Part shown: positions 24,394 through 28,134 of the stretch, in pieces
Position numbering within the stretch: position 1 is the first letter of the stretch
Layout: every line of letters starts with the position of its first letter
Assembly (NCBI GenBank): GCA_964468795.1
Contig: CAYXWL010000001.1
Location: forward strand, 232,246 to 296,245
Origin: an uncultured Candidatus Saccharibacteria bacterium
GTDB lineage: Bacteria > Patescibacteriota > Minisyncoccia > Phycocordibacterales > DATDWN01
DNA length: 64,000 bases
Reading direction: 5' to 3'
Made by a program: the position numbers and the translations under genes
The notes under the pieces: generated by a model
What the model was told of the DNA's origin: nothing
Database searches by the model: none
The model's input: only the letters and a program-made list of their open reading frames with translations

Positions 24394-24481
24394 ATGATTG
24401 TGATGATTTTGATTATTATAACATAGATTTTTTATTTTTTAAAAACAAAATCCGCCCTCCAACGGATTTCGTTGTGGGCGG

Positions 24482-24979
24482 TTAGGATTTACGATACTTC
24501 TCCTCCATTTCTCGGATAGCTTCCTCCAGAGTTCCGAGTCCCATTGCATGTCTTCTCTCATCAACATGCTCAGGATCCTCGATTTCTTTCGGAATAAACT
24601 TTCCGTCGACTTCAGTAAATTGTGTACCGAAGATTTGTGGACGATCCGTGTTCACTCTCACACGATCTGCGAGGTATGCCAGATCTTCTTTGATGATTTC
24701 CTCGAGAGGGCAATCCATCATAGAGTGTAGGCACAACTGTTGGAACGTGGGGTCATGGTCAGCGTGTTGAACGATGAGCCATGCAGAATGTGATGCTTCT
24801 CTGCCCACCATAGAAATCGTAGGCCATCTGTGATGTAACCAGATCCTCATCATCTTCACAGTGTTCTGAAAATCAACTGTCTCATCCCAGAAATCAGGAT
24901 CAAGAAGATTCTTGGAGCGCATTTCCTGGTCAACACGCCCCATCTCAAGTAGCTGTTCTGCCAACTCAGGGAAGAGCAT
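24482..24979 (-). CDS. hypothetical protein (165 aa)
   Basis: ATG preceded by AAAAAGGAGGTCAC. GC-rich. Ends at terminator CCGCCC..GGGCGG+T-run. Confidence 0.55.
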   Translation of the reverse strand: MLFPELAEQLLEMGRVDQEMRSKNLLDPDFWDETVDFQNTVKMMRIWLHHRWPTISMVGREASHSAWLIVQHADHDPTFQQLCLHSMMDCPLEEIIKEDLAYLADRVRVNTDRPQIFGTQFTEVDGKFIPKEIEDPEHVDERRHAMGLGTLEEAIREMEEKYRKS

Positions 24980-24994
24980 GTGACCTCCTTTTTC

Positions 24995-25222
24995 TCACAC
25001 GGGTTGAGTCCATTCTTTCAGAACTCGCACAGTCTTGACCCAGCTTTTCTGATAGACAAGCGGATCATCACTTGGAGCGTCCACCAGAGCCTTGGCAATC
25101 ACTTCTGCTTTGGCGTCGTCTTCAGCTTCAAATGGGATGAACTTCCAACCTCCGCTGGTTAGCCATCTACTATTCGAAGCTGTGTAACGCATTTCTGCAT
25201 ACCAGACTTCGTATTTCGACAT
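24995..25222 (-). CDS. hypothetical protein (75 aa)
   Basis: Start MSKYEVWYAEMRY after AAACGGAGGTTTT. The track ORF was trimmed. Confidence 0.45.
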   Translation of the reverse strand: MSKYEVWYAEMRYTASNSRWLTSGGWKFIPFEAEDDAKAEVIAKALVDAPSDDPLVYQKSWVKTVRVLKEWTQPV

Positions 25223-25238
25223 AAAACCTCCGTTTCTA

Positions 25239-25284
25239 AATATACCATTTTGTGCTTGACAAGTCAAGTAAAGTATGCTAGGAT
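25239..25284. promoter_or_regulatory. back-to-back divergent promoters with adjacent -35 boxes that together form a palindrome
   Basis: Plus: TTGACA(25256-61)-17-TAGGAT. Minus: TTGACT(25267-62)-17-TATATT. The -35 boxes lie in CTTGACaaGTCAAG. Confidence 0.5.
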
Positions 25285-25353
25285 AGAGGTAGTAATTCCT
25301 GTATGTATGTACAGGTCGCCCGAGAAGGGTAGGACAGAAAAAGGATGTGTCGT

Positions 25354-25662
25354 ATGACGCAGAATGCATATGATTTGAAGAAGATCGTGAACGGTCCGAG
25401 CAAGATGGACCTCATGCTGGCGATGTTCGACAGCAGCTTCCCGAATCACCGTTCAGTTGTCTTCAACTTTGAGAATGAGGGAGCGAGCAACTTCAAAGCT
25501 AGTGCTCCCTGTCACATCTCGATGGTTGAGAAGGAAGACGGTTCTGGCGAAAGCTTTAACTTCGAAGGAACTCTCTCCTACGACAACTTCCGGACAGGTA
25601 AGAGGGTGCGTGGTTGCTATAACACCATGCGCCGGACTGGCTTCTTCCACTTCGTGCAGTAG
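25354..25662 (+). CDS. hypothetical protein (102 aa)
   Basis: MTQNAYDLKKIVNG.. after AAAAAGGA. Confidence 0.45.
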   Translation: MTQNAYDLKKIVNGPSKMDLMLAMFDSSFPNHRSVVFNFENEGASNFKASAPCHISMVEKEDGSGESFNFEGTLSYDNFRTGKRVRGCYNTMRRTGFFHFVQ

Positions 25663-25690
25663 TTCTTCTGGGCGAGTTGTTAACTCGCCC

Positions 25691-25730
25691 TCCCATCAAA
25701 GTAATTAAATTTTTGATTTCTTTGATGGGA
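25691..25730 (+). repeat. IR family copy c
   Basis: GGGCGAGTTgttAACTCGCCC hairpin, then TCCCATCAAAG-18 nt-CTTTGATGGGA. Confidence 0.7.
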
Positions 25731-25782
25731 CAATTTGGTCCCGATTTGTTCATTTCAATTTTCAGTGCCCAAAGGAGGGCCC

Positions 25783-26154
25783 ATGATCAACGAACGTGGT
25801 GAGTTTATTCGCGAGACGGCAGCTCCTTCTACCAAGGAAGTCACCACGAAGAATTACATGGTCAACGTGGTCACTTCATCGCTCAAGGATATTCTCAGTG
25901 GACACAACCTGATCAGCGACATGAACCAGGTTATCCTTCTCCAGTTCGGACCTTGCTCGGAAGAGGAAGGTGACGCTCTGGCGGATCGGATCAACGCGTG
26001 GGTTCGTGGGGGTGAAGGTCGTGGTCCTGCTGAGGCATTCCGGATTCTGGGACTGCACCAGAAGACGGGAGATGTGTGGGCGTCTTGCGACCCGATCCCG
26101 ACGGCTGGCATCTCGGAACTTCTCCAAAAGTTCCAGGTGAAAACCACTGTTTGA
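25783..26154 (+). CDS. hypothetical protein (123 aa)
   Basis: MINERGEFIRE.. after AAAGGAGGGCCC. Confidence 0.5.
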   Translation: MINERGEFIRETAAPSTKEVTTKNYMVNVVTSSLKDILSGHNLISDMNQVILLQFGPCSEEEGDALADRINAWVRGGEGRGPAEAFRILGLHQKTGDVWASCDPIPTAGISELLQKFQVKTTV

Positions 26155-26173
26155 TCAACATAAAGATCCGTCC

Positions 26174-26301: not shown

Positions 26302-26520
26302 ATGTTCGTCAGCAATACCACGATTTTTCACTGCCCGATGTTCGGGTGCGGTCACGAAAACGAACGTTCGAACCGCACGAAGCCGGAAGACATCGTTTGC
26401 GAAGGATGTCACGCACCTTGGTGGCCGATGGAACTCGGTTTCATTGGAAATGATCCGAAAGAAAACATCGAGTTCGCACGGACTCATGATCGGAAAGGAA
26501 ATCTTCGTGAGCTGGCGTAA
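26302..26520 (+). CDS. zinc-ribbon-like small protein (72 aa)
   Basis: MFVSNTTIFHCPMFGCGHENE..CEGCHAPWW. Confidence 0.45.
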   Translation: MFVSNTTIFHCPMFGCGHENERSNRTKPEDIVCEGCHAPWWPMELGFIGNDPKENIEFARTHDRKGNLRELA

Positions 26521-26550
26521 TTCTTCTGGGCGAACGTAATTTGTTCGCCC

Positions 26551-26590
26551 TTCCGTCAAAGTTTTCAAGTCATTGAAAGTTTTGATGGGA
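26551..26590 (+). repeat. IR family copy d (5' arm variant TTCCGTCAAAG)
   Basis: GGGCGAACgtaatttGTTCGCCC hairpin, then the IR. The spacer and arms can form a ~16-bp extended hairpin around TTTCAAgtcaTTGAAA. Confidence 0.65.
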
Positions 26591-26657
26591 CAAAAATTCC
26601 CAAGGTGACCGTAGCCTGCATATCGCAAAATACGGTAAAGAACCCAAGGAGGTTCAA

Positions 26658-27119
26658 ATGTACACTGTCATCATTCACTGGATCACTGGTCGTGCCTCAA
26701 ACGATCCTGCAACGTACACGATTTTGGAGATGCTTGCAAAGCGTAAAGAGCATGAGCAAGTTTTATTCGAACTCGAGAGCGGGATCGAAGCTGCCGGTGG
26801 CGAGTCGGTTGCATGTAGGTCTTGGATAGCGACTAACAACGAGTGGGTCGGTATCGAAACGATGCAAGAGATCAAAATTCAGGTAGCAAGTCTTGAAACA
26901 GCCTGGTTGATCTTCAGCACCGTAAACCATCTACTCGAGATTTGTGGCAACTACAGCGGGAACATCCGACTCGGAGATAGTTTCCACAAGGCTGAAGATC
27001 TTCTATCGCAAGCTGCAAAGTACGAAAAAATTCTGCGCCAGGTCTTCCGAGAAATCAAACGGAAAGACTACTCGGCGGCAGCAATCCGTCGTACTCTGAA
27101 GCAAGCCCTAGAACACTAA
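26658..27119 (+). CDS. hypothetical protein (153 aa)
   Basis: MYTVIIHWITG.. after CCAAGGAGGTTCAA. Confidence 0.55.
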   Translation: MYTVIIHWITGRASNDPATYTILEMLAKRKEHEQVLFELESGIEAAGGESVACRSWIATNNEWVGIETMQEIKIQVASLETAWLIFSTVNHLLEICGNYSGNIRLGDSFHKAEDLLSQAAKYEKILRQVFREIKRKDYSAAAIRRTLKQALEH

Positions 27120-27178
27120 ACATTTTCAGTGAATGAAAGGGGTTGATAAGTTCTTTTCGGGCAAACTCACGTTTGCCC

Positions 27179-27220
27179 TCCCATCAAAGTTTTGAAACTA
27201 TTTTGAAAGTTTTGATGGGA
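27179..27220 (+). repeat. IR family copy e
   Basis: GGGCAAACtcacGTTTGCCC hairpin, then TCCCATCAAAG-21 nt-TTTGATGGGA. Confidence 0.7.
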
Positions 27221-27254
27221 CAATTTAGTCCATGGTTCTTTTACAGGAGTAACG

Positions 27255-27500
27255 ATGATGAACAAGAAGGATAGTTGCTTCGAGTGTCAGAAGAGAACGA
27301 ATCCTGGGAAGTGTATCGTGTGCAAGTTTCAGCTCGAAGATGTGAAAGTCGGAGAGCGAGTCACTATTCACACTTCACTTTCAGGTGTCGGCCCAGGGTC
27401 AATCACGGGCACGCTGAACAAGGAATATCACGTGGGAGATCCGAATATTCTTCTGGGACTCTCGTGTGGTGGCTTTGCCAGCATTCCTGCCGACTTTTAA
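27255..27500 (+). CDS. small Cys-containing protein (81 aa)
   Basis: MMNKKDSCFECQKRTNPGKCIVCKF.. after ACAGGAGTAACG. Confidence 0.45.
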   Translation: MMNKKDSCFECQKRTNPGKCIVCKFQLEDVKVGERVTIHTSLSGVGPGSITGTLNKEYHVGDPNILLGLSCGGFASIPADF

Positions 27501-27523
27501 CATCTACAGAGAAAAGGAGAAGC

Positions 27524-27778
27524 GTGATCCCAGCTTTGCATGTAGAGATCTTCAGGAAACACCAAGAACTCAACAAGCGCCTGATTGAAGGTAAATCAAT
27601 CTTCTTGAGTGAGATGGAGTCTCTCCTCACGAGAACCAAGAGATGCCAAACAGGACGGCGCGAGACGCTCCGATTCATCGAGCGAACGTGGGGCAACCGA
27701 GTTCGCTTCACGAAAAGAAATGGTGGTCGAGGACTCCGATGGCGAGGGCTTGATCCATCACCTTCTGTTTTTCGTTAA
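27524..27778 (+). CDS. possible GTG-initiated basic ORF (84 aa); frame uncertain
   Basis: GAAAAGGAGAAGC-GTG. Followed by terminator GCCCGCtgggaaactgGCGGGTCTTTCTTATTT (27779-27812). Confidence 0.25.
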   Translation: MIPALHVEIFRKHQELNKRLIEGKSIFLSEMESLLTRTKRCQTGRRETLRFIERTWGNRVRFTKRNGGRGLRWRGLDPSPSVFR

Positions 27779-27807
27779 AGGCCCGCTGGGAAACTGGCGG
27801 GTCTTTC

Positions 27808-28134
27808 TTATTTAGAAACAAAATCTAATTGCTCTTCTGGTATTCCAATTGATCTACCATACTCCATCGCTTCAACCCAAGTAGATTTATCAGACATTTT
27901 TAAATCAAAGATTTTATTTTTATAGACTACTTTCATATCATCACCATCAGGGATCCAGAAATTCATATACCAAGGTCCGTCCGAAAGAGATTTCCCAAGT
28001 TCCTCTAATTGAGCTTCTTTTACTAATACATCATGTAGAACCCAGTCCTCATCTTTCCAAGTCTTTATAATCTCAACCTTATTCAAAACGTTTTTATCAA
28101 CCAAGCTGTTCTCAACGATAGTACCTTTGTACAT
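27808..28134 (-). CDS. hypothetical protein (108 aa)
   Basis: AT-rich ORF, no motif recognised. Confidence 0.55.
   Translation of the reverse strand: MYKGTIVENSLVDKNVLNKVEIIKTWKDEDWVLHDVLVKEAQLEELGKSLSDGPWYMNFWIPDGDDMKVVYKNKIFDLKMSDKSTWVEAMEYGRSIGIPEEQLDFVSK

Follow-up and report, generated by a model that had tools for sequence, protein, structure and literature searches.

A GC-rich array of small-gene cassettes punctuated by a three-hairpin RNA unit in a Candidatus Saccharibacteria genome

We analyzed a stretch of 64,000 nucleotides (hereafter the window) from an uncultured Candidatus Saccharibacteria bacterium (assembly GCA_964468795.1, contig CAYXWL010000001.1, positions 232,246 to 296,245), and examined a GC-rich module of eight small genes at positions 24440-27812, here designated M2. 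Judged from its sequence and relatives, M2 is probably a horizontally acquired array of small accessory-gene cassettes that belongs to a family of GC-rich islands of the Candidate Phyla Radiation (CPR), in which structured RNA units between the genes would act in intercistronic processing and insulation. The same unit occurs in a neighboring hammerhead-containing module (M1) and in roughly 40 other CPR loci, which are cited below by number (L015, L016 and so on).

The M2 module and its RNA unit

The window has a GC content of ~40% and carries chromosomal genes (SecY, FtsH, RecG, G6PD, type IV pilus genes, transfer-messenger RNA (tmRNA) and tRNAs). M2 (48.0% GC) and M1 (18420-23150; 50.6% GC) are the two outlying GC-rich blocks of the window. 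On its left M2 is flanked by a TrmB-like regulator gene with 31.3% GC and on its right by DNA with 32.4% GC, and the GC content at third codon positions (GC3) was 0.47-0.69 in the eight open reading frames (ORFs) of M2 vs 0.21-0.34 in the adjoining host genes. Both switches in composition lie <100 nt from the two intrinsic terminators of M2 (Table 1). A first-pass annotation, made from the letters of the window, had proposed that terminators bound the module and coincide with these switches; both terminators could indeed be placed and fold strongly (z about -4), and all eight ORFs were present at the sizes it gave, that is, 75 and 165 aa in the left arm and 102, 123, 72, 153, 81 and 84 aa in the right arm. 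The left-arm terminator stem abuts the stop codon of the 165-aa (DUF6624) gene, and its U-tract overlaps the -35 box of the TrmB-like gene's own promoter, a promoter-like site at 24443-24415 that was detected in a promoter consensus scan. We consider M2 to be a bounded and compositionally foreign module of two predicted divergent operons. Two back-to-back sigma-70-type promoters would drive the left operon (75 aa, DUF6624) and the right operon (102, 123, 72, 153, 81 and 84 aa), and each operon would stop at its own intrinsic terminator.

Four junctions of the right operon carry a conserved RNA unit, and the same architecture was found at five M1 junctions and in many other genomes; no unit lies between the 81-aa and 84-aa genes. 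The unit is ~100 nt long and consists, in order, of GTTCTTYT (often fused to the stop codon), three hairpins (hp1, hp2 and hp3), GTTCTTT, GGAGG and a start codon. The GC-rich hp1 has 7-12 bp and a variable sequence, hp2 (TCCCATCAAAG...TTTGATGGGA) is an 18-bp hairpin of conserved sequence, and hp3 is a short hairpin in which the GGGA at the end of hp2 is used again. Unit 2, together with a 44-nt 5' extension, shares 95% identity with an M1 unit (19414-19538), and in L025 it has been inherited along with the 123-aa gene.

Covariation statistics were based on 45 distinct units (alignment A3), and a covariance model (R1) was used for searching, with two of the nine window copies outside its training set. 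These nine copies were all on the sense strand and all in M1 or M2, with 51-74 bits sense vs 15-34 bits antisense (four in M2 with 62-74 bits, five in M1 with 51-74 bits), and the best R1 score elsewhere in the 64 kb was 21 bits. In hp2, compensatory double changes could be observed in 11 of the 18 pairs, and one G.U pair was kept in 39 of 45 units. Across the 45 units there were ~96 G.U or U.G wobble pairs vs 2 C.A cells, an imbalance which implies that the hp2 helix is formed only on the sense transcript. A hairpin at the position of hp1, ending 0-2 nt before hp2, was present in all 45 units with 3-6 pair types per position (4% of shuffled controls behaved alike), and hp3 can form in 42 of 44. 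Of 44 units, 38 have a Shine-Dalgarno (SD) sequence downstream of GTTCTTT (median spacing 2 nt), and 34 are followed by an ORF of ≥40 aa. A single DNA-binding protein is disfavored by the coexistence of different stem variants in one genome. The unit is a sense-strand RNA structure, well supported by strong covariation and by strict strand and position rules. No match to any Rfam 15 family was obtained for it even at E values up to 10.

The heptamer GTTCTTT was enriched about six-fold in M1 and M2 (11 sense-strand copies vs 1.8 expected; P about 3e-6). Its copies mark every module junction, downstream of hp3 and of each hammerhead, and ahead of hp1, where they are fused to stop codons. They also coincide with the homology breakpoints of shared cassettes, and both an RNA signal and a recombination core were considered for them. 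The four and five R1 units together with the heptamer enrichment bear out the suggestion of the first-pass annotation that M2 shares its inverted-repeat family and GTTCTTT with the hammerhead module.

Several other identities of the unit were tried and rejected. A new self-cleaving ribozyme is unlikely, as the conserved nucleotides are nearly all in helices or in the GUUCUUU box while loops and junctions vary; tRNA-like punctuation does not fit either, given that GTTCTTT flanks the unit in direct orientation, so that its copies cannot pair as an acceptor stem. A terminator or attenuator was dismissed because no U-tract follows hp1 or hp2 within the arrays. For antisense control in trans, the unit, the GTTCTTT-SD segment and the leader of the 102-aa gene were used as targets, and neither a candidate non-coding RNA (ncRNA) at 23310-23650 nor the M1 leader nor the M1 tail had complementarity to them beyond shuffled controls (z above -1.3). 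Finally, 35-nt matches to TCCCATCAAAG...TTTGATGGGA in gut metagenomes and in the 'Geobacteraceae' locus L016 turned out to be unrelated sequences.

Outside the window, R1 found ~70 further sense-strand units in roughly 40 CPR loci (about 80 copies in all), including arrays of 3-8 co-oriented units in L020, L028, L100, L025, L029, L052 and L021. By exact pattern, the unit was located in metagenome-assembled genomes assigned to Saccharibacteria (four), Zambryskibacteria and Minisyncoccia, as well as in an unclassified bacterium and a contig binned as Gammaproteobacteria, and ~25 metagenome contigs, many from groundwater, also carried it. The unit-bearing patches are GC-rich islands in AT-rich contigs. 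M2 belongs to the same island family as the hammerhead operon M1. As a separate observation, the arrays (18420-27812, compared with the flanks) hold ~50% GC and a GC3 of 0.5-0.75 even between copies that are only 74% identical. This persistence, next to a TrmB-like gene with a host-like GC3 of 0.21, points to a maintained composition and not to recent transfer alone.

The genes of M2 occur elsewhere in other combinations. In L100 a three-unit array next to restriction-modification genes ends with the DUF6624 gene (93% identical in amino acids, 89% in nucleotides). Its cassette there closes with the same hairpin as the left-arm terminator of M2, and the homology between the two loci starts at the SD sequence, immediately past GTTCTTT. 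A 63% identical DUF6624 homolog stands behind a unit among housekeeping genes in L101. In L025 the 123-aa gene lies between units with other genes on either side and an M1-type 3' end, and its homology stops right after GTTCTTT; in L026 a homolog of the 75-aa gene is preceded by a unit and has an unrelated 146-aa ORF downstream. DUF6624, the 123-aa and the 75-aa gene are therefore cargo shared with unit-bearing arrays, directly behind or between units. Four further genes were seen as stand-alone inserts: the 102-aa gene in L024 and L106, with a TTGACA-17-(TG)-10 promoter, a 66-nt leader and its own terminator, and the 153-, 84- and 72-aa genes as stand-alone GC-rich units in L098, L102 and L099, respectively, likewise with a promoter and a terminator of their own. 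Such single occurrences in nine loci (L024, L025, L026, L098, L099, L100, L101, L102 and L106) contradict the view of M2 as a fixed gene set. M2 rather appears to be one particular assembly of cassettes from a shared pool, whose genes would be individually mobile; cassettes may have been exchanged at the homology that the units provide, which would account for the varying combinations.

Table 1 Features of M2 and of the neighboring modules in the window
Feature	Positions	Strand	Description
Sister module M1	18420-23150	-	three type-III hammerheads, five RNA units, long conserved non-coding stretches, six small ORFs
TrmB-like winged-helix regulator	23653-24393	-	PF01978, E 6e-16; GC3 0.21, host-like; abuts M2
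Left-arm intrinsic terminator	24441-24481	-	stem 24481-24452, U-tract to 24441; -21.6 kcal/mol, z -4.1
165-aa DUF6624 protein	24482-24979	-	second left-arm gene; predicted all-alpha helical-repeat fold
75-aa orphan protein	24995-25222	-	first left-arm gene, 15 nt upstream of DUF6624; 3 homologs, 42-51% identity
Left-arm sigma-70-type promoter	25239-25267	-	TTGACT (25267-25262), 17 nt, TATATT, TG extension; 10/12 matches
Palindrome CTTGACaaGTCAAG	25255-25268	.	two abutting -35 hexamers; not conserved elsewhere
Right-arm sigma-70-type promoter	25256-25284	+	TTGACA (25256-25261), 17 nt, TAGGAT, TG extension; 10/12 matches
5' leader of 102-aa gene	25294-25353	+	two small hairpins; start codon in third hairpin; fold z -2.7
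102-aa protein	25354-25662	+	~50 clusters; motifs GPSKxDLMLALFD, EDGSGESWNF, GYYSTxxRxG
RNA unit 1	25662-25762	+	GTTCTTCT, hp1, hp2, hp3, GTTCATT; R1 score 70.1 bits sense vs 33.6 antisense; fold z -5.1
123-aa orphan protein	25783-26154	+	3 homologs: 78, 66, 44% identity
RNA unit 2	26194-26295	+	variant stem TTCCTTCAGAG/TTCTGAAGGAA; R1 score 62.3 bits; inverted repeats I2, I4
72-aa zinc-ribbon-like protein	26302-26520	+	Cx4C...CxxC; 4 homologs, 45-52% identity
RNA unit 3 (26522-26613) and 153-aa leader	26522-26657	+	no 3' GTTCTTT; R1 score 62.6 bits
153-aa orphan protein	26658-27119	+	2 homologs: 82% (fragment), 41% identity
RNA unit 4, canonical form	27150-27248	+	GTTCTTTT, hp1, hp2, hp3, GTTCTTT, SD; R1 score 73.9 bits sense vs 29 antisense; fold z -4.3
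81-aa protein	27255-27500	+	CxxC...CxxC; 4 homologs, 39-60% identity
84-aa very basic protein	27524-27778	+	GTG start; 3 same-length homologs, 74-75% identity
Right-arm intrinsic terminator	27777-27812	+	stem 27777-27806 and CTTATTT; -22.4 kcal/mol, z -4.5

Gene products, promoters and leaders

Homologs were found for all eight ORFs, in part (102-, 75-, 123-, 72-, 153- and 81-aa products) by a full phmmer search of concatenated products against 1.84 billion cluster representatives. The 165-aa product is a full-length member of the Pfam family DUF6624 (PF20329; 78.1 bits vs a cut-off of 27, profile positions 39-168 of 173), for which 106 homologs were found, the named ones mostly from Patescibacteria (Zambryskibacteria, Paceibacterota, Yanofskybacteria). 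This assignment corrects the earlier statement that none of the eight products carries a recognizable motif. The only mention of DUF6624 that we found in the literature concerns its co-occurrence with graspetide gene clusters (PMC13097080), from which M2 differs in having no ATP-grasp gene. The other seven products represent orphan families, mostly from Patescibacteria metagenomes. Scans against Pfam, PHROGs and PADLOC returned DUF6624 alone, sequence searches of the Protein Data Bank with the M2 products were empty or insignificant, and a structure model of the DUF6624 protein (mean predicted local distance difference test score 95.6) matched only generic helical repeats. Thus, the profile and structure search proposed with the first-pass annotation yielded one family assignment (DUF6624), and neither sequence nor structure gave a function for any product. 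Among ten cargo-region proteins of other arrays, no Pfam domain was detected except in a neighboring ClpP. Other details of that annotation held: its two CxxC-containing products are real (72 and 81 aa), and the ORF listed as a possible 84-aa gene is conserved, although gene callers passed it over in matching contigs. On the evidence of its homologs (Table 1), the 84-aa ORF is a real conserved gene.

The two promoters of M2 (Table 1) have abutting -35 boxes that form the palindrome, and CTTGACAAGTCAAG lies at exactly 25255-25268, as had been noted before; the description of the promoters as face-to-face was wrong, since they diverge and stand back to back. CTTGACaaGTCAAG is an inverted repeat because two -35 hexamers stand back to back, so that it is a palindrome by construction, and it had been proposed as the operator of one dimeric repressor that could shut both arms. 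TTGACNNGTCAA occurs once in the window vs 0.10 copies expected. However, the homologous promoters of the 102-aa gene in L024 and L106 have kept the TTGACA box, the spacing, the TG extension and the 66-nt leader, and lack the second half-site (CTTGACAGGATTGT and CTTGACAAATATAC), which leaves the single-repressor idea without support.

This result also bears on the wider proposal that M1, M2 and the TrmB-like gene form one co-regulated system, in which a dimer of the TrmB-like protein on CTTGACaaGTCAAG would silence both arms of M2. The TrmB-like gene does sit between M1 and M2, and homologs of it (37-77% identity) adjoin units in seven independent loci (L017, L019, L020, L028, L059, L079 and L089); the palindrome, seen once, would be expected only 0.1 times by chance; and in the window, L020 and L019 the control region of M1 and the ncRNA contains a TGTCAA-N6-TTGACA inverted repeat along with three invariant TGTCAA boxes. 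Yet the spacing of that inverted repeat differs from the M2 palindrome, the palindrome consists of two back-to-back consensus -35 hexamers whose second half is missing in L024 and L106 although promoter and leader are otherwise nearly invariant there, and in L019 and L020 the TrmB gene comes with an M1-type operon and has no M2-type array beside it (its neighbor in L020 is ClpP). We therefore find such co-regulation quite unlikely, and the putative binding of the TrmB-like protein to the palindrome has no comparative support. What stands of the idea of one system is that units, hammerheads and the TrmB-like gene form one recurrent island family; an obligate partnership of M1 and M2 does not.

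The leader of the 102-aa gene (271-330 in L024, 244-303 in L106) showed one substitution across the three loci, despite the 102-aa proteins of L024 and L106 being only 70% and 50% identical, respectively, to that of M2. Such near-invariance suggests a strongly constrained regulatory RNA or a protein-binding site. The leader had no Rfam match at E values up to 10 and was absent from IMG/VR. The 153-aa gene has a specific leader of its own after unit 3, with one hairpin followed by a second one that contains the SD sequence; both hairpins are kept with compensatory changes in L098, downstream of that locus's own TTGACA promoter.

Some observations were made on the surroundings. L020 is syntenic with the window over the TrmB gene, the convergent candidate ncRNA, the M1 promoter and a 340-nt leader (74% nucleotide identity over 1 kb), and its downstream cargo is wholly different and includes a hammerhead. 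The candidate ncRNA (23310-23650, plus strand, ~340 nt) has a promoter of its own (TTGACA-17-TATACT, 23281) and a strong terminator (23616-23649), converges with the TrmB-like gene, is kept in L020 and has no Rfam match. The divergent control region between it and M1 (23095-23330) contains, besides the elements mentioned above, GCTATA direct repeats; its elements are kept in L020 and L019 and are candidate operator sites. At the 3' end of M1 (18440-18620, minus strand) lies a recurrent structured non-coding element of ~200 nt (GGTCCAGGC..GTGCAG...CTGGACTGCAC), which has up to three copies in other arrays (L015 1728-1896; L029 1843-2011; L020 ~3100-3290, 3905-4115 and 4905-5065), and two more repeated non-coding modules with a common ...GTGTCGTGGAGC..GGCCCGTGATACAT follow M1 hammerheads 1 and 2. 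It was also considered whether the GC-rich block of M1 (18.4-23.1 kb) is an rRNA operon, which was rejected.

To the right of M2, a complete diversity-generating retroelement (DGR) occupies 30849-33719. A 311-aa gene on the minus strand carries the variable repeat (30855-30972) at its 3' end, and the template repeat is at 32114-32231; 15 of the 16 mismatches between the two are at template adenines. Its reverse transcriptase is split in two overlapping ORFs (32629-33231 and 33171-33719), and the gene calls of the identical contig L009 include bAvd. In L100 (2211-9456) the DUF6624 array lies beside an HNH gene, ParB-methylases and a PvuII-like restriction-modification set, which are followed by a serine recombinase (88% identical to that of the window) and tRNA-Ser. 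The stretch from the arrays to tRNA-Ser looks like a variable integrative island. Further away, the window contains a tRNA-Ile with a UAU anticodon (39805-39879, minus strand), which is unusual for bacteria, and a tmRNA (43147-43536, plus strand) with a long atypical tag peptide, VKNLSKGIASPFGNAFAFSPALA.

Function of the unit and rival explanations

The likeliest role of the unit, we infer, is intercistronic processing and insulation at the RNA level. On the transcript it would work like the RNase III hairpins between the early genes of phage T7: hp1 would be the 3' end or stabilizer of the upstream cistron, the long hp2 duplex would be a nuclease or protein target, and hp3, together with GUUCUUU and the SD sequence, would protect the 5' end of the downstream cistron and supply it with a standard ribosome-binding site. 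The hammerheads of M1 likewise occupy positions between cistrons, upstream of the units and not instead of them. We favor this role because a 3' hairpin, a long duplex and a 5' hairpin followed by a standardized ribosome-binding site stand in series, because the hp1 equivalent of the stand-alone cassette L106 is a terminator with a U-tract (the stop codon is followed by GTTCTCT, a GGGCGG...CGCCC hairpin and TTTTT), and because self-cleaving hammerheads, whose cutting of such polycistronic RNAs is known, occur in sister arrays. When RNase III cuts in T7, the upstream message retains a 3' hairpin and the downstream message gains a defined 5' end. M2 shares with T7 long near-perfect intercistronic hairpins in a polycistronic mRNA, with 18 conserved pairs in hp2 and hp1 stacked 0-2 nt away. 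Unlike T7, it has three hairpins, a stem of invariant sequence and a GUUCUUU box, and its cleavage is putative.

A number of points weigh against this interpretation. That hp2 is cleaved is something that we only infer, and not only the structure but also the sequence of hp2 is conserved, which points to a specific, putative protein partner. In M1, hammerheads and units are arranged in series (hammerhead, non-coding RNA, unit, ORF), so they are not simple functional substitutes, and the left arm of M2 lacks any unit. The stable ~50% GC of the arrays in AT-rich hosts has no explanation in this interpretation. Moreover, the homology breakpoints of shared cassettes lie exactly at GTTCTTT in all three informative comparisons, which site-specific recombination at a DNA core would fit equally well.

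The last point makes a DNA-level recombination joint a serious rival, or an additional function. It would turn units or GTTCTTT cores into recombination sites and M2 into an integron-like array whose cassettes are moved by a site-specific recombinase, for example the large serine recombinase at 29426-30757, which lies 1.6 kb away and has homologs near units in L100, L045 and L023 (88, 33 and 31% identity). GTTCTTT flanks about a quarter of the units as a direct repeat, hp2 is a 40-bp imperfect palindrome, and, as in integron cassette arrays, small and mostly promoterless ORFs are joined by imperfect palindromes with a conserved 7-nt core, and the same cassette recurs in different arrays with boundaries at that core. 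However, hp2 varies from 38 to 72 nt in length with a variable center sequence, neither of which suits a recombinase dimer site, and the wobble-pair strand bias together with compensatory stem variants in one genome indicates selection on RNA. The cores are direct repeats instead of the inverted RYYYAAC/GTTRRRY pair of attC, and integrons have neither the three-hairpin unit nor the RNA-type strand-specific covariation and the several internal promoters of these arrays. No IntI-type integrase was seen among the selected window ORFs that were scanned, the recombinase present being of the serine type, and most unit-bearing loci have no recombinase in reach, although the contigs are short. Overall, recombination sites as the primary identity of the units seem to us unlikely, if worth keeping in mind.

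It should be noted that the two levels need not compete. Near-identical units from junction to junction would supply homology for cassette exchange, and the unit might be the joint of a CPR-wide cassette platform, with capture, chaining and exchange of single genes and their own leaders at the 7-nt core plus per-cistron RNA processing and translation through a dedicated putative factor that binds or cleaves RNA. We offer this combination as a speculative possibility and regard it as rather doubtful. Selfish repeats of the repetitive extragenic palindromic (REP) or miniature inverted-repeat transposable element (MITE) type, inserted in intergenic spaces and of no consequence for the operon, are the least credible source of the units. 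They are repetitive and palindromic, and some copies have a short flanking direct repeat; still, all nine window copies are confined to 18.7-27.3 kb and not dispersed, the units always share the orientation of the genes and keep a constant spacing to the SD sequence and start codon that come after them, and neither a REP-associated tyrosine transposase nor another transposase gene was seen.

An ordinary prophage moron or early-gene cluster is likewise very unlikely. Morons are defined by a sigma-70 promoter and a terminator of their own and by a base composition that differs from the surroundings. Single genes of M2 resemble them in these respects (L024, L106, L098 and L102, and both arms of M2), since cassettes can carry their own promoter and terminator and a deviant composition. 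A serine integrase, a DGR and tRNA-Ser all lie <6 kb away, and clustered hammerheads are typical of prophage regions (PMC3088659). Nevertheless, no PHROG family matched at E values below 0.005, blastn found nothing in 50,697 phage records (INPHARED) or 72,556 plasmids (PLSDB), and in 2.9 million IMG/VR contigs the unit and the leader of the 102-aa gene were absent and the 102-aa protein family had no relative. Three remote DUF6624 relatives were the only matches of M2 proteins to phages, plasmids or IMG/VR, and with PHROG and PADLOC also returning no phage or defense family, the placement in prophage early-gene families that the first-pass annotation had set against its own account was not found. 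The other genes of the window are chromosomal, and no phage structural or replication genes were seen near any array. Besides lacking a prophage context and phage homologs, M2 differs from morons in that many cassettes are promoterless and chained by RNA units.

Clustered hammerheads have been reported to flank single variable genes near integrases or prophages and to cleave polycistronic RNA (Perreault et al. 2011, PMC3088659). M1, with its three type-III hammerheads, is such a hammerhead-punctuated array. M2 is similar in its polycistronic small, variable and mostly hypothetical genes (a single promoter and a single terminator enclose six small ORFs of the same orientation), in its punctuation by structured RNA and in the large serine recombinase nearby. 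It differs in having the three-hairpin unit in place of a ribozyme and in that the arrays lie in CPR chromosomes and not in recognizable prophages. No hammerhead or other ribozyme family was detected in 25230-27300 at E values up to 10, nor any beyond the three hammerheads of M1 in 18000-32500 at E values up to 1.

In summary, M2 partly resembles hammerhead-flanked clusters, morons, T7 RNase III sites and integron cassettes, and departs from every one of them in one or more of the features that define it. In the literature on hammerheads and ribozymes in CPR/Patescibacteria, on DUF6624 and on Saccharibacteria islands, we found no description of this system. On its own M2 is less remarkable, being one cargo array of the family, and the interest rests on the RNA unit and the cassette logic and not on the proteins. 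CPR/Patescibacteria genomes are tiny, yet these islands spend kilobases on structured RNA and orphan mini-proteins at ~50% GC. Should the unit serve as a signal for processing or insulation, it would show how these organisms express horizontally acquired genes as standardized parts; should it also be a recombination joint, a new gene-capture system would be defined. The combined platform, if real, would be integron-like without an integron integrase, would act on DNA as well as on RNA and would be linked with hammerheads and conserved large non-coding RNAs. With either outcome, the motif model and the list of cargo families may be used for mining accessory functions in a lineage whose genes are mostly unannotated.

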